From: Sphagnum compactum
Lineage: Eukaryota
Direction: 5' to 3'
Assembly: GCA_965153455.1 (NCBI GenBank)
Contig: OZ234493.1
Location: 16,482,213 to 16,546,212 of the forward strand
Length of the DNA: 64,000 bases
Below the pieces are notes generated by a model, which saw nothing but the letters and a program-made list of their open reading frames with translations, was not told the origin of the DNA and ran no database searches. This document shows, piece by piece, positions 21,761 through 49,000 of the stretch. Numbering within the stretch: the first letter of the stretch is position 1; every line of letters begins with the position of its first letter. Made by a program: the position numbers and the translations under genes.

Positions 21761-24170
21761 ATGGCAAGTGCAGGGTGTTATGCAACTTCTTCATGCATCG
21801 AGCGTGTTTGAAAGGAGAAGATTGCATGTTCTCTCATAGCTGGAGTGACCAGGCTAGCCAGGTAAGTAAAGCGCATCGTCTCTCCTCTAACAAGCTTCGT
21901 GCATCAAAGTGTTTCCTTTCTGGAAAAAGATTATGCTCACAGCTTTCAGTTTGCGCATGACTTTGTTTTTCCCCTCAATTAGAACATTGTTTTTTCAGTG
22001 GTCCTGTCATGTGTGTGTACTGATTGTTGTACGATCATGTGCAGGTATGCACATTTTATCAGCGTGGCCTTTGTTCTTATGGCAGTCGTTGCAGGTATGA
22101 GCATGTAAAACTGTCCCGTCCAGTGTCAAATAATCCTCTCCCTCCCCTACCAAGACCTTCAGTGGTAGCTCTTAACTCATCTCCAGACACAAGTAGGGCA
22201 GAAGAGAGCTCAAGCAATACCCCTACACAAAGTGCCTGGCAACTCACAGAAGGCAAGGCTAATCTGGGTCCCCGATTTCTGGAAGAAGATGATGAAAAGG
22301 ATGTTGAAGAGATTGAAATGCCAACGTCCAACGACCCCAGTGAGACCCCAATCTGCGCGTTTGCAGCTGCTGGCATATGCCCTCGGGGTGATAACTGCCC
22401 GCAGATTCATGGTGACTTCTCCCCAACTTGTGGGAAGCATTGTTTGCATCCCTTTCGTCCATGAGAATGTGATAACCACAGGCAGCAGTGTGAACGTAAC
22501 CAGAAGAAGCTTGAGGCACTTCGCAAGAGCCAAGATATTGAAGGCAGTGTCTGTCTGGAACGGGTGCTTTCAAAAACAACAGTTGCTGAGCGGAAATTTG
22601 GATTAATGTCAGGTCATCCATTTTGTGTTGGCTGTATACGGGGTTGGCGGAGTGGTTCTCATGCACCAGGGATGGACATTGATACTGTTGTGCGGGCCTG
22701 CCCAGTTTGTCGAGTAACTTCACATTTTATAGTCCCAAGTGTTGTTTGGTACTCAAGTTCTGAAGAAAAGGAGGATATAATCAACGGCTATAAGAACAAG
22801 CTCAGGTGTGTGCATGAGACCTAAAGCTGTTTGTTCTATTTGATGTGCCTCTCACAACTGGAGGTTTTATTACCCATCTGACATACTACTTGACAGATGG
22901 TGACCTGATACATAATTGTCCTTTAAGGTTATACTCACCCTATTATGGACCTGTCTAATGACCAGCCAGCTGGTTGGATTTTGACTTGCAAGATTGGCGC
23001 TGCCATTCTGGTAGGCTTGTCATGTGGCTGCACCCAGCTGTGACCATCAGTCTTTTATCTGGTCGGGTGCCTGATTTGTCAATATTTGTGTATATAGATT
23101 GTGCTCTGATTTGTCATAGGTGGGTGGTGTGTTGCACATTAAATGACTGGTGTACGACCTCCTTTTCCATCCCTTCAACAATTCAAGCAATCAAGGAGAT
23201 CAAGTGGACATGGAGGCATAAGGGGTGACCCCAAAGTCCTTATTGGTCTCTAGGTGTTTGCATTCTTATGTGAGAACATATAGAATGCTTTACCTTAGCT
23301 CCTGATCCACAGACGTGTAAAAATACACGCACAATGTTTTTTGTAATTGAATGTTAGCGGTGTATTTGTGTGTGCGGTGATGTTGATTGTAAGTATTTTG
23401 ACTATGGAAATGGAACATGTCCCTTTGGAACTAGCTGCTTCTACAAGGTAAGGAAACCAGCTTTTTTTGTTCTCTGTCCTCTGTGCAACTCAAATTGTCA
23501 TGTCAGAGTGTAGCTGACCCCCATGTGACCATGTTGTCTTAACACATTTGACAATTCCGGTTGGCATCAGATGCTCCTGCTCAGGATTTTGCATATTTAG
23601 CTGGTTTCATATGTTGAATTTCCTTCATCTGCAGCATATGTTTAGCGATGGAAGTAGGGAGGAGGTGAAGTTACGGCACCTTGGTGCTGCTGATGGGAAC
23701 ACTGTCATTGCCAAAAATGTTCGGTAAGCTTTTCAGGCTCCCCTTGCTGAAAGGTTTTCTCCTTTGTTTTTGACCGATCCTTAGGAGCTTTGTGGTTTTC
23801 ATGAAATTATTAACATCTTTGGTCAGGATGTAAGATGACCAAAGATGTTCAAGATGCATACATCATTTTAAGCTCAAGACTACCCTGCCGTGATTTTTTG
23901 TGGCTTCCTGACTGCAATTGTCCATGTCCTTTGATATCAGACCTTAAATGTGTTGCTGGCTGGTCAAGGGAGAAATTATTCTGGCAGATAAAGGGTTTGA
24001 GTGTTGCAACTTCTGAAAGCTTCTGCCCTCTCTAATGTTGGAGAAGGATTTCATTCTATTCTGCATTTTGAACGTTATGTGCCACTTGTTGTAATGGTTT
24101 GCAGTTTTTGAATCCAATGTTGTTTTGATTTTCTCTTGATATGGACAGGTTATCGGACTTCCTGGACTGA
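21761..24170 (+). pseudogene. MKRN: Makorin (CCCH zinc fingers + RING E3 ligase) pseudogene, copy 1
   Basis: Exons read [42 protein letters not shown]...[21 protein letters not shown]...RING...[45 protein letters not shown]...; RLSDFL. Defects: in-frame TGA at 22462-64, first RING Cys to Gly (EGSVC), loss of CD before HPFC, and a mutated acceptor (gcgg) near 23377. Confidence 0.9.
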
Positions 24171-24695
24171 TTGGTTAATGCCAGGTGAACTGGATGGATG
24201 AGAATGCAAGCGGGAACCAACATGGAGACTTAGCTTGCCAAAAATACTAATATGACAGGAAGGACCAAGTATTTAAGGGCTCTTGACACAAGGACTGCAC
24301 ACAACATGTGCATTCATAATCTGTAAGCTTTTACTTTGCCCCAGCAATTCTACCCGCACTCAAACGGGTTGCCTGACTGATCTATGGGGTAGTAAAGATT
24401 CATACCCTGTTGTCCAGATATCATGATCTGGGCAGAGATGGTAGTTGTGTTATCAAATAAGTTCCAGGGTTGTCTGACTGATCAATGTGGTAATTGGATT
24501 GTTATATATACTTCCCTACACCCACTATTGGGAGCTGACGAAGTGAGTAGGGTGTTGTGGCAGCTAGTCATTGCTATTCATAGTGAAGTTGATTGTCTGA
24601 TACTTTGCAAGTGACACTTGTCATGTTATGACCATACTGAATTTCATCATCTGAGTTTTGCTTGTACTAGAATTGACCCAATGCTTACACCTTCA

Positions 24696-27462
24696 GATTA
24701 TGCTCACAGCTTTCAGTTTGCGCATGACTTTGTTTTTCCCCTCAATTAGAACATTGTTTTTTCAGTGGTCCTGTCATGTGTGTGTAGTGATTGTTGTATG
24801 ATCATGTGCAGGTATGCACATTTTATCAGCGTGGCCTTTGTTCTTATGGCAGTCGTTGCAGGTATGAGCATGTAAAACTGTCCCGTCCAGTGTCAAATAA
24901 TCCTCTCCCTCCCCTACCAAGACCTTCAGTGGTAACTCTTACCTCATCTCCAGACACAAGTAGGGCAGAAGAGAGCTCAAGCAATACCCCTACACAAAGT
25001 GCCTGGCAACTCACAGAAGGCAAGGCTAATTTGGGTCCCCGATTTCTGGAAGAAGATGATGAAAAGGATGTTGAAGAGATTGAAATGCCAACGTCCAACG
25101 ACCCCAGTGAGACCCCAATCTGCGCGTTTGCAGCTGCTGGCATATGCCCTCGGGGTGATAACTGCCCGCAGATTCATGGTGACTTCTCCCCAACTTGTGG
25201 GAAGCATTGTTTGCATCCCTTTCGTCCATGAGAATGTGATAACCACAGGCAGCAGTGTGAACGTAACCAGAAGAAGCTTGAGGCACTTCGCAAGAGCCAA
25301 GATATTGAAGGCAGTGTCTGTCTGGAACGGGTGCTTTCAAAAACAACAGTTGCTGAGCGGAAATTTGGATTAATGTCAGGTCATCCATTTTGTGTTGGCT
25401 GTATACGGGGTTGGCGGAGTGGTTCTCATGCACCAGGGATGGACATTGATACTGTTGTGCGGGCCTGCCCAGTTTGTCGAGTAACTTCACATTTTATAGT
25501 CCCAAGTGTTGTTTGGTACTCAAGTTCTGAAGTAAAGGAGGATATAATCAACGGCTATAAGAACAAGCTCAGGTGTGTGCATGAGACCTAAAGCTGTTTG
25601 TTCTATTTGATGTCCCTCTCACAACTTGAGGTTTTATTACCCATCTGACATACTACTTGACAGATGGTGACCTGATACATAATTGTCCTTTAAGATTATA
25701 CTCACCCTATTATGGACCTGTCTAATGACCAGCCAGCTGGTTGGATTTTGACTTGCAAGATTGGCGCAGCCATTCTGGTAGGCTTGTCTTGTGGCTGCAC
25801 CCAGCTGTGACCATCAGTCTTTTATCTGGTCGGGTGCCTGATTTGTCAATATTTGTGTATATAGATTGTGCTCTGATTTGTCATAGGTGGGTGGTGTGTT
25901 GCACATTAAATGACTGGAATACGACCTCCTTTTCCATCCCTTCAACAATTCAAGCAATCAAGGAGATCAAGTGGACATGGAGGCATAAGGGGTGACCCCA
26001 AAGTCCTTATTGGTCTCTAGGTGTTTGCATTCTTATGTGAGAACATATAGAATGCTTTACCTTAGCTCCTGATCCACAGACGTGTAAAAATACACGCACA
26101 ATGTTTTTGTAATTGAATGTTAGCGGTGTATTTGTGTGTGCGGTGATGTTGATTGTAAGTATTTTGACTATGGAAATGGAACATGTCCCTTTGGAACTAG
26201 CTGCTTCTACAAGGTAAGGAAACCAGCTTTTTTTGTTCTCTGTCCTCTGTGCAACTCAAATTGTCATGTCAGAGTGTAGCTGACCCCCATGTGACCATGT
26301 TGTCTTAACACATTTGACAATTCCGGTTGGCATCAGATGCTCCTGCTCAGGATTTTGCATATTTAGCCGGTTTCATATGTTGACTTTCCTTCATCTGCAG
26401 CATATGTTTAGAGATGGAAGTAGGGAGGAGGTGAAGTTACGGCACCTTGGTGCTGCTGATGGGAACACTGTCATTGCCAAAAATGCTCGGTAAGCTTTTC
26501 AGGCTCCCCTTGCTGAAAGGTTTTCTCCTTTGTTTTTGACCGATCCTTAGGAGCTTTGTGGTTTTCATGAAATTATTAACATCTTTGGTCAGGATGTAAG
26601 ATGACCAAAGATGTTCAAGATGCATACATCATTTTAAGCTCAAGACTACCCTGCCGTGATTTTTTGTGGCTTCCTGACTGCAATTGTCCATGTCCTTTGA
26701 TATCAGACCTTAAATGTGTTGCTGGCAGGTCAAGGGAGAAATTATTCTGGCAGATAAAGGGTTTGAGTGTTGCAACTTCTGAAAGCTTCTGTCCTCTCTA
26801 ATGCTGGAGAAGGATTTCATTCTATTCTGCATTTTGAACGTTATGTGCCACTTGTTGTAATGGTTTGCAGTTTTTGAATCCAATGTTGTTTTGATATTCT
26901 CTTGATATGGACAGGTTATCGGACTTCCTGGACAGATTGGTTAATGCCAGGGGAACTGGATGGATGAGAATGCAAGCGGGAACCAACATGGAGACTTAGC
27001 TTGCCAAAAATACTAATATGACAGGAAGGACCAAGTATTTAAGGGCCCTTGACACAAAGGACTGCACACAACATGTGCATTCATAATCTGTAAGCTTTTA
27101 CTTTGCCCCAGCAATTCTACCTGCACTCAAACGGGTTGCCTGACTGATCTATGGGGTAGTAAAGATTCATACCCTGTTGTCCAGATATCATGATCTGTGC
27201 AGAGATGGTAGTTGTGTTATCAAGTAAGTTCCAGGGTTGTCTGACTGATCAATGGGGTAATTGGATTGTTATATATACTTCCCTACACCCACTATTGGGA
27301 GCTGATGAAGTGAGTAGGGTGTTGTGGCAGCTAGTCATTGCTATTCATAGTGAAATTGATTGTCTGATACTTTGCAAGTGACACTTGTCATGTTATGACC
27401 ATACTGAATTTCATCATCTGAGTTTTGCTTGTACTAGAATTGACCCAATGGTTAGGCCTTCA
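24696..27462 (+). pseudogene. MKRN: 2767-bp tandem duplicate of the makorin pseudogene lacking the first zinc-finger exon
   Basis: Near-identical to 21929-24695 at offset 2767 (ORFs 22024/24791, 22564/25331). It carries the same stop codon and RING lesions. Confidence 0.92.
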
Positions 27463-30736: not shown

Positions 30737-33700
30737 TCACATCCTTTTGGAAGTGGAGTCGAATCTTTTCCATAGTGCGTTGAAAGGTTCTTGGATTAAT
30801 GTGGCAATATATTGCAATCCTTTCTTTTTGTTCAATCCTTCCAAACGTTGCAAAACTTCTTGCATTTCTGGTCTTTGATTTGGGTCTTCCTATAAGAAAC
30901 AAGCGTCATAAAAGTTAGATGTTTATTATGTAATTGTTATACATTACAATCAAACCATGGCAAAATGCTCCAATAAATAGGACCATATGTTCATGTCTCA
31001 ATTTTCATAACATAATTTGAACATATATTCTTCAAAAAGGAGTGTAGAAACCAACTTATATTTGTATTCAACAACATAATTTTATGTTATTTGAAACTAG
31101 GATACTCAAATTGACTTTACATATCAATCATGCAAATGGTTTAAGGAATTCCAAATGAAATTGAATGTACCATTTGCATGTGCAAACCTTCTTAAGAAGT
31201 TTTACATTCATTAATCAATCCAATTTAACTTATTTCACTAGTAAAAGCGTGGTTTATGACTAAATTTTAGTCACAAACAACATTTGCCACTAAAAGTTAG
31301 CCTAGTAGCAAATGACAAATTAGGAACGACGCTAGTTGCAAACAACAGATGAAATATTTGTTTTCATAGAATACACATATGACAATTTTACACATGTATC
31401 CAAGGATGAGCTCTTGCGACTACACTTACAACTACAATGTACAGCAATATGTTGAATGTTGAAGTTGTTTACATTGTAGTTGTAATATGTGCCATGTGGT
31501 GGCTTAAGATTGAAGGACGTGACAACTTAAAATTTATAATCATTTAAGGTTAATTTAAGGTTGGACCACTTATGATAGGCCAATTGGCACTTGAGCTAAG
31601 CCTAGGTTAGGCCACCTAACCTAATTAAGTGCCTAATGTACGTAACCTAATTTCAAGGTAAACCATTTAAAATAGGCCATGTGGCACCTAGGCTATGCCT
31701 AGGCCACCTAGCCATTGTCTAGCTTAGGTAGGTAGGTACTTAGGTCTAGGTCTAAATTGTTACAACAAAATCCAATTTTATTTTTAATTTAACCTATTAT
31801 GTGGAGCGTATGTGATTAGCTCCTCCCATATGGCAACTAAAAAAATTTAATGTGTTTACACCAAATCAACCTATTTATATAGTTTGTAAATTTGAAATGG
31901 AAGACAAACAATATGGGATAAAATTTTATCTATAGCTCTTAGTCGCATAGTTCTAACCTAGTTGCAACTATTCCTTAAGATATACTATTACATAGCCTAC
32001 CTACTAGGTAGCATAAGTTTTTACTAGGTAATCATTTAGATAATATTTATTTGAAGTCAAAATTCAAATAGTTTAAAAATAATTATTTATTTAAAATACC
32101 TATTTAGATAGCCTCTAAATAAATATTTATAATTCAATAGGCCTATTAAGTAGCTAGTGGATACGTAGGTATATATGTAGATACCTAATAAATAGCTAGG
32201 TAGCTAGGTAGATAAATGGTATATAGGTAGGTGTACAAAGTAGGTAGGTAGGGTATATGCACCTAGTAAATAAATAGGTAGGTAGTAGGTAGGTATTTAG
32301 TAATTATGTAGGTAGGGATGTAAGTGGTATGTACATAAATACATAACAGGTAGGTATATGGTACATATGTGGGTACCTAGTAATTAAGTAGGTAGGTAGG
32401 TAATTAAGTAGGTAAACATTTAGTAGGTAGGTATAAACATATAGATAAATATGTATTATTAAATAATCTATATGTGTAGTTACTAGGTAACATATGTACC
32501 TTATGTACTTATAATGTAACTATTTTGGTTGCATGTGCAACTGAATGTATATATGATGTTGTAAAAATAAAAAGACATCATGAAAAATCAACCTATTGAA
32601 AAGATGAAATAGGTCATAATTACAACCTAGTTGAAAAGAAGACCAAAATCCATCCAAATTTGAAAATTAGTTTCAGAGGCAACCATTCATAGTCATAAGC
32701 GACATTTAGTCGCACATAGTCACACAAGGAATGGTTGCAAATGACAAGATTTCTATTAGTGTTTCATATTGTTTCAAATATTACATTGAATCCATGATTT
32801 TAGGTTTTTGAAATTTGCTTGACCACAAATTGAATGATAAAATAAAAGATTTGGCACAAGATTTACCTTGATGCATTGAAGGGAAATTTGCAAAAATGAT
32901 TTGGCTTCATTTCGATCAAACCCAACAATTGAATTATTAATTGCAACATCAAAAATTTGTTGAAATCCATCTTCTTCCTCTTGAACCTCTTGTACCCATT
33001 GGATAAAGTGGCGAATGTGAATTTCATTTCCATCTAAAGTCAATGGTGACCCATTCACAAGTCGAATCAACAATACTCCAAAGCTATACACATCACTTTT
33101 TGTCAATGCTTGATTTGAATGAATTTCTGGTGCCATATATCCGCTTGTTCCTGGCCTAGAAGTTGAAGCTAATGCAATCTGAATTTAAAAATTCAAAAAT
33201 ATCAATAATTTCAATGTGCGTTGCATGCATTGAATATACATGTCAAAATTCATAAAACCCATACCCAATATGGTATAATACCAATAGGAAACTTGATTTT
33301 TTTTTAATCACAAAAGTCGCAATCCTTTTGTTATTACTTGTGCACACATAAAAATAAATTTTGTAATATAAAATTTGTAATTTCATGAATTATTACATTA
33401 AGTGTTTTTCAAATATTCATTTTACATTGTGATTGTTTATCATATTATTCCATGACCTATAATAATGAAAATATAAAATTATTAAATTGTGGCACACAAG
33501 AGTGTTCAAATTTGCAAAGTTCATAATTGCACTAAGATATAATGCCCATGCATTTAATCAACAAAAAAATAATGGTGGGGCACATACCACATTTTCATCC
33601 CTGCCATGTAAAATTTTTGCCAACCCAAAATCAGCCAATTTTGGGGTGTAATCCTTATCCAAAAGGATATTTCCTGGTTTGATGTCAAGATGAACAATGG

Positions 33701-36700
33701 TTGGATCACATTTATGATGCAAATGTGCCAATCCTCGAGCGACCCCTATAATGATGCATATTCGTTTGTCCCAATCCAAACGTTTATCTCCATCGAGCCA
33801 TTTGTCAAGAGATGAATTTGAAATGTATTCATACACCAACATGTGTTTTAAACCTTTGATACAATAGCCCAAAAGACGAACCAAATTCATATGTCGAATT
33901 GATCCCAAGGTGTTCATTTCTGATACGAAAGATTTTTTTGCACCTTCATTATGTTCACCACTCCATTCCAAAACTTTAATCGCAATTGTAATGCCTTTCC
34001 AACAACTTTGATACACCTCACCATAGGCTCCTCTCCCCAAACTTGGTCCGAAATTCAATTCATCGTATGTAAAAGATCGAATACTCGAATTTAATGGCAA
34101 CGATTCTATTATCGGTTGGTATTCATCGAACATCCATTTCAACCATTTTCGATCTTGTTCATCATTTGGTGTGAGATTATGAAGTTTATCGATCGCTTCC
34201 AATGCTGCTTGATATTTGTTTAAACTCCAACTCATGTGGGCATGAACTGTTAAAGTGAATGCATCATTTGGTTCAAGAACATCAGCCTTGTCAAGATCCT
34301 CGAAGGTTCCTTGATAGTCACCCAGGTTCCTTTTGATAGCTCCACGAACACTCAAAGTGAATGCATTGTTTGGTTCAAGAACATCAGCTTCATCAAGATC
34401 CTCCAAGGCTCCTTGATAGTCATGCAACATCCTTTTGACATCTCCACGAACACTCAAAATGAATGCATTGATTGGTTCAAGAACATGACCCTTGTCAAAG
34501 TCCTCCAAGGCTCCTTGATAGTCATCCAACATCCTTTTGACATCTCCACGACGTCGCAAAGTGAATGCATTGTTTGGTTCAAGAACATCAGCCTTGTCAA
34601 GGTCCTCCAAGGCTCCTTGATAGTCATCCAATATCCTTTTGACATTTCCACGACGTCGCAAAGTGAATGCATTGTTTGGTTCAAGAACATCAGCCTTGTC
34701 AAGGTCCTCCAAGGCTCCTTGATAGTCATTCAACATCCTTTTGACCTCTCCACGACTCCTCAAAATGAATGCATCATTTGGTTCAAGAACATCAGCCTTG
34801 TTAAGGTCCTCCACGGCTCCTTGATAGTCATGCAACATCCTTTTGACCTCTCCACGAACACTCAAAGTGAATGCATTGTTTGGTTCAAGAACATGAGCCT
34901 TGTCAAGGTCGTCCAAGGCTCCTTGATAGTCATGCAACATCCTTTTGACCTCTCCACGAACACTCAAAGTGAATGCATTGTTTGGTTTAAGAACATGACC
35001 CTTGTCAAGGTCCTCCAAGGCTCCTTGATAGTCATCCAACATCTTTTTGACCTCTCCACGAACACTAAAAGTGAATGCATTGTTTGGTTCAAGAACATCA
35101 GCCTTGTCAAGGTCCTCCAAGGCTCCTTGATAGTCATGCAACATCCTTTTGACCTCTCCACGAACACTCAAAGTGAATGCATTGTTTGGTTCAAGAACAT
35201 GAGCCTTGTCAAGGTCCTCCAAGGCTCCTTGATAGTCATCCAACTTCTTTTTGATCTCTCCACGACTCCTCAAAGTGAATGCATCGTTTGGTTCAAGAAC
35301 ATGAGCCTTGTCAACGTCCTCCAAGGCTCCTTGATAGTCATGGAACATCCTTTTGACCTCTCCACGAATTCGCAAAGTGAATGCATCGTTTGGTTCAAGA
35401 ACATGAGCCTTGTCAAGGTCCTCCAAGGCTCCTTGATAGTCATCCAATATCCTTTTAACATCTCCACGATTCCTCAAAGTGAATGCATTGTTTGGTTCAA
35501 GAACATCAGCCTTGTCAAGGTCCTCCAAGGCTCCTTGATAGTCATCCAACATTCTTTTGACATCTCCACGATGTCGCAAAGTGAATGCATTGTTTGGTTC
35601 AAGAACATGAGCCTTGTCAAGGTCGTCCAAGGCTCCTTGATAGTCATGCAACATCCTTTTGACCTCTCCACGAACACTCAAAGTGAATGCATTGTTTGGT
35701 TCAAGAACATGACCCTTGTCAAGGTCCTCCAAGGCTCCTTGATAGTCATCCAACATCTTTTTGACCTCTCCACGAACACTCAAAGTGAATGCATTGTTTG
35801 GTTCAAGAACATCAGCCTTGTCAAGGTCCTCCAAGGCTCCTTGATAGTCATGCAACATCCTTTTGACCTCTCCACGAACACTCAAAGTGAATGCATTGTT
35901 TGGTTCAAGAACATGAGCCTTGTCAAGGTCCTCCAAGGCTCCTTGATAGTCATCCAACTTCTTTTTGATCTCTCCACGACTCCTCAAAGTGAATGCATCG
36001 TTTGGTTCAAGAACATGAGCCTTGTCAACGTCCTCCAAGGCTCCTTGATAGTCATGGAACATCCTTTTGACCTCTCCACGAATTCGCAAAGTGAATGCAT
36101 CGTTTGGTTCAAGAACATGAGCCTTGTCAAGGTCCTCCAAGGCTCCTTGATAGTCATCCAATATCCTTTTGACATCTCCACGATTCCTCAAAGTGAATGC
36201 ATTGTTTGGTTCAAGAACATCAGCCTTGTCAAGGTCCTCCAAGGCTCCTTGATAGTCATCCAGGATCCTTTTGATAGCTCCATGACTCCTCAAAGTGAAT
36301 GCATCGTTTGGTTCAAGAACATCAGTTTCATGAAGATCCTCCAAGGCTCCTTGATAGTCATCCAACTTCTTTTTGATCTCTCCACGACTCCTCAAAGTGA
36401 ATGCATCGTTTGGTTCAAGAACATGAGCCTTGTCAAGGTCCTCCAAGGCTCCTTGATAGTCATGGAACATCCTTTTGACCTCTCCACGAATTCGCAAAGT
36501 GAATGCATTGTTTGGTTCAAGAACGTCAGCCTTGTCAAGGTCCTCCAAGGCTCCTTGATAGTCATCCAATATCCTTTTGACATCTCCACGATTCCTCAAA
36601 GTGAATGCATTGTTTGGTTCAAGAACATCAGCCTTGTCAAGGTCCTCCAAGGCTCCTTGATAGTCATGCAACATCCTTTTGACATCTCCACGAGTCCTCA

Positions 36701-37388
36701 AAGTGAATGTATTGTTTGGTTCAAGAACATCAGCCTTGTTAAGGTCCTCCAAGGCTCCTTGATAATCATGCAACATCCTTTTGACCTCTCCACGAACACT
36801 CAAAGTGAATGCACTATTTGGTTCAAGAACATCAGCTCCGTCAAGATCCTCCAAGGCTCCTTGATAGTCATGCAAGATTATTTTGAAAGTTCCACGAACA
36901 CTCAAAGTGAATGCATCATTTGGTGCAAGAACATCAGCCTTGTGAAGAGCCTCTAAGGCTCCTTGATAGTCATCCAACATCGTTTTGACCTCTCCACGAA
37001 TAGTCAAAGTGACTACATTGTTTGGTTCAAGAACATCAACTTTGTCAAGGTCCTCCAAGGCTCTTTGAAAGTCATGCAACATCTTTTTGACATTTCCACA
37101 AATCTTCAAAGTGATTACATTGCTTGGCGCAAGAACATCACCCTTGTGAAGGTCCTTCAATGCTCCTTGATACTCATCTAACATCTTTTTAACCTTTGCA
37201 CGAATTCGCAAAATGAATGCATTGTTTGGTTGAAGAATATCAACCTCGTCAATGTTCTCCAAAGCTCCTTGATAGTCATTTGACATCCCTTTTACATTTT
37301 CATGAGTCTTCAAAGGGATTGCATTGTTTTGTTCAAGAACATCAACCTTGTCGAACTCCTCCAAAGCTCCTTGATAATCATCCAACAT
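30737..37388 (-). CDS. TPR-array / non-RD RLK-Pelle protein kinase fusion, ~1421 aa; exons 37388-33588, 33178-32867, 30889-30737
   Basis: About 31 34-aa TPRs (G8, Y17, A20, L24, A27, P32), then RSFTYDEL, GRGAYG, IAIK, EMNTL, HLDIKPGN and DFG. Two canonical phase-0 GT-AG introns join ENV|IALASTSRPGTSGYMAPE...DVYSFG...CIK|EDPNQRPEMQEVLQRLEG...KRM*. The true start codon is uncertain. Confidence 0.88.
31236..32761. mobile_element. Non-autonomous CACTA element in intron 2 of the TPR-kinase
   Basis: Begins CACTAgtaaaa at 31236 and ends tttctatTAGTG at 32761, with a 3-bp TTT duplication on both sides. It has sub-terminal agtcgca/gttgcaa repeats and an internal (AGGT)n-rich tract. Confidence 0.8.
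34161..37388 (-). repeat. 102-bp coding tandem array (~31.5 TPR units)
   Basis: Consensus AFTLxxRGxVKRMLxDYQGALEDLDKAxVLEPNN repeated with no indels. Confidence 0.97.
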
Positions 37389-37800
37389 TCTTTTGACCTT
37401 TGCACGAGTTCACAAAGAGAGTGCATCGTTTGGTTCAAGAACATGAACCTTGTCAAGGTCCTTGAAAGCTCTTTCATAATTGTTTAACACATGTTTGACA
37501 TATTAATAAAAATCCCTAAAATATGTGCAATGCTTGGTTTAATAACATCATGTTTGTCAAAGTCTTCAAAAGTTTTTTCATCTTCCTTAAAGACCTTTTT
37601 TTTCATGTGCACAAGTTCTTAAACTTAATGCACTTTTGGTTCATTGAACATAAACCTTGTCAAGGTTTTTCAAGGCTACTTGATAATCTTTCAATACCTT
37701 TTTTTCACATTTTTCACATGTGTTATTTAAATGATTCCATTGTTTAATTCATGAACACTAGCCTTGTGAAGGTCGTCCATGGTTTTTTCATAAGCATTTC
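37389..37800 (-). pseudogene. About 4 decayed TPR units upstream of the ORF
   Basis: VKHVLNNYERAFKDLDKVHVLEPNDALSL*TRAKVKR lies in frame immediately upstream. Further units (gattatcaagtagccttgaaaaaccttgacaagg, gacgaccttcacaaggct) contain stops and frameshifts in poly-A runs. Confidence 0.8.
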
Positions 37801-39020
37801 ATTTGTCAAGAACATGAAATAATGATATATATATATATATAGATATTGATTGAACATGAAACAAAATAATTGTGATAGAGATTTTTTTTGGGGGATATTC
37901 CACCAACCTATGCCACCTTACTTTCGTATAGATTTGAAATGTAATCATTACTTACATAATGATTAGGATACATAATTCTTATCATTGATGATTATTCCAC
38001 TTAGTTTAAAGAATGTGATTTGGTAATAAACATTTCATTACATTATGCAATTTGTTCAATTCAATAAATGTAGATAAAAGATGTGCGTCCACATCAATAT
38101 ATATTTTTCCACTTTTTGATGGAGCTAAGGTGGCAAGCATTCTTAGGCAAAATTTGATTTAACTAACAACATTGTTTCAAGGAACTTTTAATTGTTGCAA
38201 AACTATTTTGAATAGCTAGCTAATGCGAATTCAACTTTGTTCAAATTAAACTTTTTAATATAATCCCGTTTGAAATCTAAAAATATCGTATTCATGTTTT
38301 AGTTATTCACTCATTCCATTCATCACAACCTTCATACCTTTCACATCCTTGATTAAGAACACAAACTTAGTTTTGACGTTGCAAGACATATTGAGTTCAA
38401 GATGATAGAAGTTTGTGTGTGAAACACATACCTACAAGTTTTGAGAAATTGCAAAATATGTGATGTTCAAATGACCTTGATAGTTTTTGTTGTCTTTTAG
38501 CGTTGGTTGCTAGCCCAATGAAATGCATGTGAACACTATGGCAATCAAGAAAAACACCAAGTTAACCCACCTTAATAGAAAATCATGGTAGATGAGCATT
38601 TGTGCAAATTTGAATCATGATACAATCGTTACTTGAGGTCAAACATTCATAACATTACTAATGCGTTCAAGGACATGGAACCAAAGTTTTGGTGTTTGAG
38701 ACCTACCAAGTTTGACATAAAAGACATGATGATATGTGAAAAGCATTTGCACGTGGTGATTGGATGATGAACACTTCTCTTGTTGTTGCGTTGAGCCACA
38801 AAGCCGTATGAACATATGTGAAGAGATTGATGGCAATAGTGCAAGAAGGGAACCAACCTCGATAAAAGTTTGTAGCAAACTCGGGGATACAAATTTGGGC
38901 CAAGGGAGAATTAGTCCATTGGATTCCTTGCATTTATGCCAGACTCGCGAACATCTTGGAAGGTGGTTCTGATTAGAGGTTGAGAGAAAGGATCCAAGTG
39001 GTCCTTCCAGGACGGTGCAA

Positions 39021-47289: not shown

Positions 47290-49000
47290 AAACACAATTG
47301 TTTAGGTTAAACTTAACCAAACTTGGCAAAACTTGACAAAATTAATATCATAATACATTGGCCATTTGAACACTTGTTCCTTGAATAATTAATTAATTTT
47401 GAAATTTTCATTTCACAAACAGAATATTTTTAAATATTCATTATTTCTTTCACAATATTTTTTTGATTTAAAAGAATTTTTTTTTTGAAACTTTCAACAT
47501 TTTTGAAAATAATATAATTAATGTTGAATTAACTAAAGTACTAGGGTATTAGTTAGAATAAACTAGACAATCAATTTAACTAAACTTGGCAAAATTAGGT
47601 TAAATTAGAACATTAAAATAAAACTTGGCAAAACCTAATCACATTTAACAAAACTTTGATAAATTAGGCTAAACTAGGCTATTGAAGCAAAACTTGGCAA
47701 AGATTGAATAGACATAGTTGTTTAAGATAAACTTGGCTAAATTTGGCAAAACTTGACAAAATTTGGCTCAACATGCCTATTTAAATTGAACTTGGTAAAA
47801 TTGGGCAAAACTTAACAAAACTTGGTTAAACATGGTTATTTTGGTTAAACTTGGTTAAACTTAGCAAAACTTAACAAAACTTGGCTAAACATGAAACCCT
47901 ATTTTGATTAAACTTGGTTAGAATTTGGCTAAATTTGGCAAAACTTGGTTAAACATGGCTATTTAGGTTAAACTTGGTTAGATTTGGCAAAATTTAGCTA
48001 AACTTAGTTAAACATGGTTATTTTCATTAAATTTGATTAAAATTTGGCTAAACTTGACAAAATTTGGTTAAACATGGCTATTTAAGTTAAACTTGGTTAG
48101 ATTTGACAAAACTTGGTAAAAATTAGATAAATTAAGCTAAGTTAGAACATTGATGTTAAACTTGGCAAAAATTGATTAAACATGACCATTTAGACTAAAT
48201 TTGGCAAAATTTGGCAAAATTGGCGAAACATGGTTATTTAAATGAAACTTGGTTAGACTTGGCAAAAATTAGTTACTTAAGTTAAACATGGCTTCATTTG
48301 GCAAAACTTAAATAAATTCGACTAAAATAGGGTATTGAAAATAAACTTGGCAAAATTTAGATAAATTAGGTTAAACTAAGGTAGTAAGGCAAAACTTGGC
48401 AAAAATTAGCTATACATGGCTAAACATGGTTATTTAGGTTAAATGGCTAAACCTGGCAAAATTTGGATAAATTAGGCTAAATTATGATATTGAGGCAAAA
48501 CTTGGCAAAATTTGGTTAAACATGATTACTTAAGTTAAATTTAACTAAACTTGGCAAAACTTGGATAAATTAGGATAAACTAGGGTATTGTGGCTAAAAG
48601 TGGTTACTTATGTTAAACTTGGCAAAACTTAAATAAATTGGGCTAAATTAGGGTATTGAAGTTAAACTTGGTAAAAAAATGGCTAGAACCAAAATTAACC
48701 CAAATTTAACCAAGTTTAGCCTAAGTGGTTTAATTAAGCCATGTCTAGCCATGTTTTGCCAAGTCTATTCATGTTTAACATAAGTAGCCATGTTTAACCA
48801 AATTTAATCAAGTTTAACGTCATACCTTATTTTAGCCTAACTTATCCAAGTTTTGCCAAGTTTAGCTAGGTTTAATTTTAAAATAATCGTGTTTAGCCAA
48901 ATATAGTTTCAATATTCTAATTTAACCTACTTTTCCAAGTTTTATTGAGTCTAACCAATTGAAAATTAAGGAACCATGTTTAGCTAAGTTTAACCAAAAT
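47290..49000. repeat. Low-complexity ~10-bp (aaacttggca/aaacttggtt) array that reverses orientation at ~48690
   Basis: Dozens of aaacttggc/aaacatggtt units up to ~48680, then their complements (gccaagttt, agccatgttt) to ~49000. The flanks have gactac/tagtc motifs like those of the intronic CACTA. Confidence 0.8.

Follow-up and report, generated by a model that had tools for sequence, protein, structure and literature searches.

Does the variation in a long array of near-identical repeats fall where a ligand would bind, and if so, in what kind of protein? The locus that raises this question lies in a 64,000-nt stretch of the moss Sphagnum compactum (GenBank assembly GCA_965153455.1, contig OZ234493.1, forward-strand positions 16,482,213 to 16,546,212), which is referred to throughout, at its full length, as the window. 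Its minus strand carries an array of 31 tetratricopeptide repeat (TPR) units of 102 bp each (34161..37322), numbered 1-31 in the Pfam TPR_2 register, with the A of the AFTL motif as position 1. The original prediction, made from the letters of the window, covered 34161-36914, which corresponds exactly to units 5-31 of the 31, and proposed a groove-lining di-residue "code" under diversifying selection, in the manner of fungal NOD-like receptors (NLRs). Sequence, RNA and predicted fold show an intact, transcribed gene for a moss receptor-like kinase (RLK), and we favour, with modest confidence, the view that the lumen of its long TPR superhelix would serve as a diversifying ligand-binding surface. 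To our knowledge, NLRs with leucine-rich repeats (LRRs) are credited with nearly all intracellular recognition in plants, and most examples of homogenised arrays with a hypervariable binding face come from fungal NLRs, brown-algal NB-ARC-TPR proteins and the variable lymphocyte receptors (VLRs) of jawless fish.

Repeat units and their variable face

Tandem Repeats Finder (TRF) reported one array, at 34252-37462, with a period of 102, 31.5 copies, 88% matches, 0% indels and a score of 4686. The feature under study comprises the highly similar core units 5-30 (34263..36914, minus strand). Its central units are ~91% identical at the DNA level, units 5-29 differing from one another at 9.4 of 102 nt on average; units 1-4 and 31 form the diverged edges of the array. 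That the repeats are canonical TPRs, as had been claimed, is borne out by four lines of analysis. Pfam scored the product of the first exon far above threshold (TPR_2: 262.3 bits, cut-off 27; TPR_1: 253.8 bits, cut-off 27.8), and a phmmer search of PDB sequences aligned the array without gaps, in the canonical register, to the engineered consensus TPR (CTPR). An AlphaFold2 (AF2) model of units 24-31 with the following linker, built on a 34-row alignment (A1; pLDDT 91.8, pTM 0.80), assigns positions 2-13 of every unit to helix A and positions 17-30 to helix B, with a long cap helix after the last unit; a single-sequence model of units 8-17 was unusable (pLDDT 54.6), and the alignment-based model was used instead. 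The Foldseek matches listed for this model include the 8-repeat CTPR superhelix (8chy, TM-score 0.80, 272 columns, 28% identity), 9qhb, the TPR domain of OGT (1w3b), SPY, and subunits of APC/C and the BBSome. The prediction for the array is an uninterrupted right-handed TPR superhelix, of the same fold and register as CTPR8 (8chy) and the OGT domain (1w3b); in a long array the A helices should line a lumen. The TPR signature pattern is W4-L7-G8-Y11-A20-F24-A27-P32; in the core units G8 and P32 are invariant, A20 and A27 are retained in 25 and 22 of the 26 units, respectively, and the Leu residues at positions 4 and 24 are hydrophobic. Unlike in the consensus TPR, the canonical L7 and Y11 are replaced by (near-)invariant R7 and K11.

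Per-position variation was assessed in the 26 core units, 22 of which are distinct as DNA. The initial observation, that variation is focused on a few positions between conserved segments, was confirmed and could be extended. The residues that had been listed are correct: positions 5-6 carry SV in 11 core units, RS in 5, RN and RI in 3 each, RR in 2, and RT and RH once each, with TV occurring in unit 31; position 9 carries E (15), D (7), A (2), T (1) or N (1); and positions 12-13 carry RM, RI, KK, KM or RN, to which a single II has to be added. The segments DYQGALEDLDK and VLEPN are indeed near-invariant at the DNA level, positions 16-26 and 29-33 exhibiting few variants at most. Codons 17, 18, 19, 29, 30 and 32 are the same in 26 of 26 units, and all core units agree in their residues at positions 2, 8, 11, 16-19, 23, 29, 30 and 32. 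By Shannon entropy, position 6 is the most variable (2.35 bits), followed by positions 9 (1.61), 13 (1.46), 15 (1.39), 34 (1.10), 28 (1.00), 5 (0.98), and 12 and 10 (0.93 each). Positions 15 (H12/D12), 28 (D14/H12), 34 (N17/D8) and 10 (V20/I5), which had been overlooked, are thus as variable as positions 5 and 12. Two positions of the lumen face, 9 and 16, bear acidic residues.

Codons 5, 6, 9, 12 and 13 account for 46.5% of the nonsynonymous pair differences, a share reached by 7 of 100,000 random five-codon sets; since this set was picked post hoc, sets fixed beforehand from the literature were tested instead. The published set of variable and contact positions (2, 5, 6, 9, 12, 13, 33, 34) holds 49.4% of the summed entropy vs 23.5% expected (223 of 200,000 random sets reach it), and the Hop contact set (2, 5, 6, 9, 12, 13) holds 41.8% vs 17.6% expected (186 of 200,000). 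A set of 18 database proteins, with 85 units, likewise has positions 6, 5, 15, 9, 12 and 13 as the most variable, and its per-position ranking agrees with that of the window array (Spearman 0.57, p = 5e-4). According to PMC1261162, TPR1 and TPR2A of Hop bind peptides through positions 2, 5, 6, 9, 12 and 13, and these contact positions are the most variable ones in TPRs generally. On a helical wheel of helix A the variable set of the moss units points to 180 degrees and the Hop contact set to 184 degrees, while the packing set (4, 7, 8, 11) points to 30 degrees. The placement of positions 5, 6, 9, 12 and 13 on the peptide-contacting face of helix A, as originally proposed, agrees both with this wheel and with the Hop contacts as given there. 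PMC1261162 also describes position 6 as often an Asn that contacts the peptide backbone, whereas in the moss array it is the most variable site. Altogether, the amino-acid differences concentrate on the face of helix A that is predicted to line the concave lumen, and the mapping to the groove is supported by register, fold model and published contacts.

Tests of selection within the array and across its relatives

Substitution rates were estimated with the pairwise Nei-Gojobori method (NG86) for 325 unit pairs, and events were counted on a maximum likelihood (ML) tree of the 22 distinct units. The pairwise values are dN 0.104 and dS 0.100 for the whole unit (dN/dS 1.04), 0.375 and 0.368 for codons 5, 6, 9, 12 and 13 (1.02), and 0.064 and 0.069 for all other codons (0.93). 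On the tree, the five codons received 27.5 nonsynonymous and 4.5 synonymous events (ratio 1.32), and all other codons 39 and 14 (ratio 0.76). The nonsynonymous rate of the five codons is 2.23 per site, compared to an array-wide synonymous rate of 0.87, i.e. 2.6-fold higher (binomial p = 7.5e-4), and without position 5 the ratio is 3.24. The dN/dS of the five codons hence depends on the reference, being 1.0-1.3 relative to local dS and 2.6-3.7 relative to array-wide dS. The local dS is based on ~2.7 synonymous sites and is dominated by AGG vs CGA codons for Arg at position 5; as it is both thin and Arg-dominated, the two references are reported side by side. The check that had been proposed, enrichment of nonsynonymous over synonymous change at the five codons, accordingly gave a divided answer: it was not significant against local change (Fisher p = 0.17) and was seen, 2.6-fold, against array-wide dS.

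A scan of metagenome contigs yielded 74 loci of this family from moss and peat samples. A 102-bp profile identified 1517 ungapped units in 72 of these loci, the longest run comprising 51 units. At least 10 good units were found in 41 arrays, of which 8 near-duplicates were dropped, leaving 33 arrays with 754 units. Uninterrupted arrays of 51, 37, 37 and 37 units occur in loci L041, L020, L039 and L001, respectively, L041 being the longest. A TPR superhelix makes one turn in ~8 units, so the longest relatives would form more than 6 turns.

In 32 of the 33 arrays dN at codons 5, 6, 9, 12 and 13 exceeds the array-wide dS (median ratio 2.03; Wilcoxon p = 4.7e-10), and in 31 of the 33 dN of the remaining codons is lower than dS (median 0.50). 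At single positions, the proportion of nonsynonymous differences (pN) was compared with the array-wide synonymous proportion (pS). It is higher in 31 of the 33 arrays at position 5 (median ratio 2.08) and in 30 at each of positions 6 (2.2), 9 (2.0) and 12 (1.87), followed by positions 15 (25 arrays, 1.56), 34 (17 arrays, 1.1), 28 (14 arrays, 0.96) and 13 (10 arrays, 0.68). All other positions, including 18, 22, 25, 26 and 29 of helix B, have a median ratio below 1. Position 13, predicted to be hypervariable, is so in the window array (entropy 1.46) but not family-wide, where position 15 takes its place. Which residues prevail at the variable sites differs from paralogue to paralogue. A di-residue "code" is not supported by the family: the 754 units show 90 different pairs at positions 5-6 and 442 signatures over the five sites, which indicates a combinatorial surface rather than a small code. 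The proposal of diversifying selection therefore gains mainly from the family-wide replication (32 of 33 arrays), the signal in the window array by itself being weak.

Transcript, kinase and array turnover

The array is contained in an open reading frame (ORF) of 1276 codons on the minus strand (33558-37388). A tblastn search with the S. fallax protein BDL97_07G003500 (P0128) revealed two further exons, at 33178-32849 and 30889-30740, and RNA reads fixed the joints. Exon 1 (33588..37388, minus strand, as are all parts of the gene), delimited by the ORF, the Pfam matches and a donor at 33588/33587 taken from RNA joints, encodes the start codon (the Met being position 13 of a partial unit), the 31 TPR units, a cap helix with linker and the kinase N-lobe. 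The cap helix and linker between array and kinase (34056..34160) correspond to helix 273-292 of the AF2 model and are conserved in relatives P0003, P0128 and P0002. Intron 1 (33179..33587, 409 nt, GT..AG) is spanned by 33 polyA RNA reads and by metatranscriptome contigs that join 33178 to 33588. Exon 2 (32867..33178), from the kinase activation segment to the C-lobe, matches P0128 at 90% in tblastn and has an RNA depth of 53-73x vs <16x in the introns. For intron 2 (30890..32866, 1977 nt, GT..AG), 61 polyA RNA reads join 30888 to 32866, a joint ambiguous by up to 3 letters. Exon 3 (30737..30889), with the end of the kinase, the C-terminal tail and the stop codon at 30737-30739, matches P0128 residues 421-470 at 78%. 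The spliced three-exon product is open, 1421 aa long and 85.9% identical to P0128 over cap and kinase. Stranded polyA RNA (run X24, from a related individual) reaches a depth of 50-150x over the exons and of <16x over the introns, with 77x continuing into the last TPR units. The first mates of the polyA reads map to the plus strand, which in most stranded libraries means RNA from the minus strand. Only 145 of the 875 RNA reads are at least 99% alike, so part of this depth belongs to another strain or to paralogues.

The spliced product contains a Gly loop, AIK, HLDIKPGN (non-RD, with HLD), DFG and APE motifs, and Pfam places a protein kinase domain at residues 1112-1265 (Pkinase: 104 bits; PK_Tyr_Ser-Thr: 101 bits). 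The closest kinase matches are from Sphagnum (S. balticum, 75%; S. fallax BDL97_05G115300, 69%), and the best named ones outside Sphagnum are plant RLKs with 37-51% identity. Judging by motifs, profile scores and nearest matches, the kinase part is of the non-RD RLK/Pelle type. Scanned against Pfam, the 1276-aa product of exon 1 matched only TPR-type, kinase and spurious coiled-coil families and neither NB-ARC nor NACHT, and thus the protein is not an NLR. A tblastn search with relatives detected nothing further in the 64-kb window. Judged by the ORF layout, there is no signal peptide region, ectodomain or membrane segment; as the ORF begins within a TPR unit and only the cap helix and linker precede the kinase, the protein is probably cytoplasmic, resembling receptor-like cytoplasmic kinases (RLCKs).

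Upstream of the first Met, which is position 13 of a TPR unit, the frame is open back to position 6 of that unit, with a stop codon (37410-37412) at its position 5. A stop-bearing unit ("*TKRM") also precedes the arrays of loci L010 and L008/L003. Since the window and two or more other loci have this stop in common, a start within a TPR unit seems to be conserved and not to reflect a recent break. Further upstream, inspection of the sequence revealed decayed TPR-like units with stops and frame shifts (37412..37900, minus strand). The NCBI gene models P0123 and P0128 from Sphagnum begin with MTIKEPWRT(L/S)TRLMFLNQTMH, i.e. with a TPR unit in another frame, and residues 1-23 of P0128 match nearly every unit in tblastn (e.g. 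window 34454-34729, minus strand). These N-termini look like an annotation artefact that cuts the arrays short; P0128 shows only ~3 units. P0002 from S. balticum shares the cap helix, the linker and the kinase (with 75% identity in the latter), but the repeats ahead of them are LRRs rather than TPRs, which suggests that different sensor repeats may have been placed on one and the same kinase module. On the opposite strand, the array contains an 881-aa ORF (34311-36956, plus strand); being a by-product of the 102-bp periodicity, it illustrates that long open frames in such arrays are by themselves weak coding evidence.

That arrays of this family are remodelled between relatives, as would be seen by comparing the order of their units, was confirmed with L010, an ortholog-like locus whose frame opens at the same place. 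Its four N-terminal and two C-terminal units pair 1:1 with those of the window array, at a distance of 4-11 nt. The central units, 25 in the window and 17 in L010, differ in order and are nearest, at 0-8 nt, to units of their own array, so the totals are 31 vs 25 (a comparison of loci, not of true alleles). To judge from these pairings, the two arrays follow the textbook pattern of concerted evolution, in which the repeats at the edges are conserved. Within the window array, pairwise unit comparison revealed a multi-unit block duplication: units 12-17 (35589..36200) and units 19-24 (34875..35486), both on the minus strand, differ by 1, 0, 0, 0, 2 and 0 nt at a register shift of 7 units (714 bp), and a lag of 7 gives four identical unit pairs in the assembled sequence. 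Among 11 same-locus pairs from different metagenome samples, one (L033 and L031) differs by one unit and most of the other 10 were without an internal unit indel (several of the contigs being cut), and there was no sign of rapid shuffling among near-identical alleles.

Alternative explanations and known repeat receptors

Several points weigh against a diversifying binding surface. In the window array the whole-array dN/dS is ~1, the event contrast between the five codons and the rest has a Fisher p of 0.17, and the local dN/dS is only 1.02 (pairs) or 1.32 (events); in the relatives the five-codon dN exceeds its own local dS in only 19 of the 33 arrays (median 1.18). These arrays are paralogues, possibly of several species, and hence not independent, and the order of units may be wrong where such repeats were assembled from short metagenome reads. 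Recombination is not taken into account by unit trees, and NG86 is a crude way of counting. The concave-face mapping is built on register, helix limits, published contacts and the helical wheel, not on measured exposure, and some of the RNA depth comes from paralogues, the reads being from a related individual. The high local dS could reflect returns to Arg via different six-fold codons at positions 5 and 12. Relaxed constraint combined with concerted evolution, in which positive selection plays no part and the variable positions are exposed residues that any TPR tolerates, would fit the Fisher test, the local dN/dS of ~1 and the whole-array value of 1.04, as well as the statement of PMC1261162 that the same positions are the most variable in TPRs generally. 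However, it predicts omega of at most 1, while in 32 of 33 arrays the five-codon dN is roughly double the array dS, and in the window 2.6-fold; exposed positions of helix B stay below 1, and gene conversion should erase neutral differences at the five codons as it does elsewhere. We therefore consider this explanation unlikely, if by no means negligible.

It is improbable, in our opinion, that the array is a structural or scaffold TPR of an ordinary signalling kinase, i.e. a spacer or an oligomerisation rod whose variation would be irrelevant to recognition. Scaffolding is a common role of TPR proteins, subunits of APC/C and the BBSome are among the fold matches, and conservation of the kinase part relative to S. 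fallax is high (85.9%), but the number of units shifts from ~3 annotated in P0128 to 25 in L010, 31 in the window and up to 51 in relatives, and it is the lumen positions that carry paralogue-specific residue sets, whereas the conserved positions are those of the scaffold. A decaying or recently amplified pseudo-array, open only because it consists of copies of an open unit, could be invoked on account of the antisense 881-aa ORF, which marks long ORFs as partly a by-product of periodicity, of the stop-bearing units just upstream and of the whole-array dN/dS of ~1; it is very hard to reconcile with a transcribed, correctly spliced and complete 1421-aa kinase product, with purifying selection on the non-groove codons of 31 of 33 related arrays, and with an upstream stop and start position common to L010 and L008. 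The idea of a nucleic-acid reader similar to transcription activator-like effectors (TALEs) or PPR proteins, with one base per 34-aa unit read by a di-residue, was raised by the phmmer matches to PDB sequences (TAL effectors: E = 1.4e-35, 126 bits; engineered CTPR: 147 bits) and also draws on the 34-aa period and the di-residue-like variation at positions 5-6. It was rejected on fold evidence and appears to us scarcely credible: the AF2 helix limits are those of TPRs and not of the short-plus-long TALE helices, all Foldseek matches listed are TPR proteins with no TALE among them, phmmer aligns the repeat-variable di-residue (RVD) with the near-invariant R7 and the invariant G8 rather than with positions 5-6, and 90 different 5-6 pairs and acidic lumen residues at positions 9 and 16 do not suit such a reader.

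To return to an RLK with a diversifying TPR lumen, the central units change by duplication of units and blocks, loss and homogenisation, and the edge units alone stay orthologous between relatives. The lumen would be a putative ligand-binding surface, most likely for an extended polypeptide. Its diversity at positions 5, 6, 9 and 12 (together with 13 in the window array and 15 family-wide) may be favoured by selection while the scaffold is homogenised, so that each paralogue would obtain a binding surface of its own. Ligand binding could then control the kinase. Recognition of non-self or microbial molecules would be the most likely use and is at the same time the least supported step; we regard such a role as plausible. 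A broader scenario is possible, yet we put it forward only tentatively and think it rather doubtful: peat mosses may possess a large, lineage-specific repertoire of cytoplasmic receptor kinases, in which homogenised TPR superhelices of up to ~50 units with a positively selected lumen are wired to a non-RD RLK/Pelle kinase and recognise microbial or non-self molecules independently of NLRs and LRRs, following the logic of fungal NLR repeats and lamprey VLRs.

The fungal precedent was cited correctly in the original prediction. As described by Dyrka et al. 2014 (PMC4986451), the TPR, ANK and WD repeats of fungal NLRs are highly conserved internally and polymorphic in repeat number, with selected sites on the concave face; such repeats occur in only 0.4% of repeat proteins in Viridiplantae, and the internal-conservation threshold used there is 85%. 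The moss array resembles them in its near-identical tandem units, change of unit number, concerted evolution and variable or selected concave TPR sites, and with ~91% identity in the central units and 88% by TRF over the whole array it lies above their 85%. With 31 units in the window and up to 51 in relatives it is far longer than the arrays of Podospora NLRs, for which the same text gives 2 to >14 TPR units. Unlike the fungal NLRs, the moss protein is from a land plant, lacks NACHT and NB-ARC, and has a C-terminal RLK/Pelle kinase as its signalling part instead. In the brown alga Ectocarpus, NB-ARC-TPR candidate receptors form a multigene family proposed to act in recognition, in which TPRs diversify under selection (Zambounis et al. 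2012, PMC3341825). There, each TPR is a separate 42-aa exon subject to exon shuffling, with NB-ARC as the partner, whereas the moss array is a single exon that changes by unequal exchange and is partnered by a kinase. The window protein would work like the fungal and Ectocarpus repeat receptors yet is not one of them: it is the theme of the highly-conserved-repeat receptor set on a plant kinase.

Among the proteins of plants themselves, the point of comparison is the architecture of the BSK kinases. BSKs are RLCKs in which the kinase is followed by a few diverged C-terminal TPRs. Both are plant cytoplasmic RLK/Pelle-type kinases combined with TPRs, but in the moss protein the order is reversed and the array is homogenised. 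Full-text searches, which did not extend to subscription journals, found no description of the moss family. What the locus adds is a land-plant family that couples a homogenised array directly to a non-RD RLK/Pelle kinase, in dozens of paralogues with 20-50 units. If the proposed function is true, a diversifying repertoire of receptors would have arisen independently once more in this family. It would open the question of how early-diverging plants such as Sphagnum, which live amid dense microbial partners, sense them, and it would offer a natural system for the study of ligand binding by a TPR lumen several superhelical turns long.

TAL effector repeats (3ugm, 2ypf) share with the moss array helical units of 34 residues that are near-identical save for a few hypervariable ones, a weak periodic similarity; they differ in that the predicted helix geometry and the fold matches of the moss protein are those of TPRs and its hypervariable sites do not coincide with the RVD. 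A phmmer search with units 8-15 (35793-36608) returned TAL effectors with E-values of 1e-35 to 1e-22, nearly equal to those of CTPRs, as a periodic low-identity match of 34-residue repeats. Matches with TPR units 32-49% identical to those of the moss (P0151, P0159, P0178, P0201 and others) include, by precomputed Pfam lists, cyanobacterial proteins that also carry a trypsin-like protease, caspase-like or TIR domain and a Botryococcus protein with NB-ARC.

Elsewhere in the window, a tandem duplication of ~2767 bp with 98-99% identity (21928-27356) carries two 154-aa ORFs that differ by one residue (22259-22723 and 25026-25490, minus strand). An AT-rich region at 47569-48639 consists of nested tandem repeats with periods of 10, 49, 59, 98, 119 and 182, built around the motif TAAACTTGGC.

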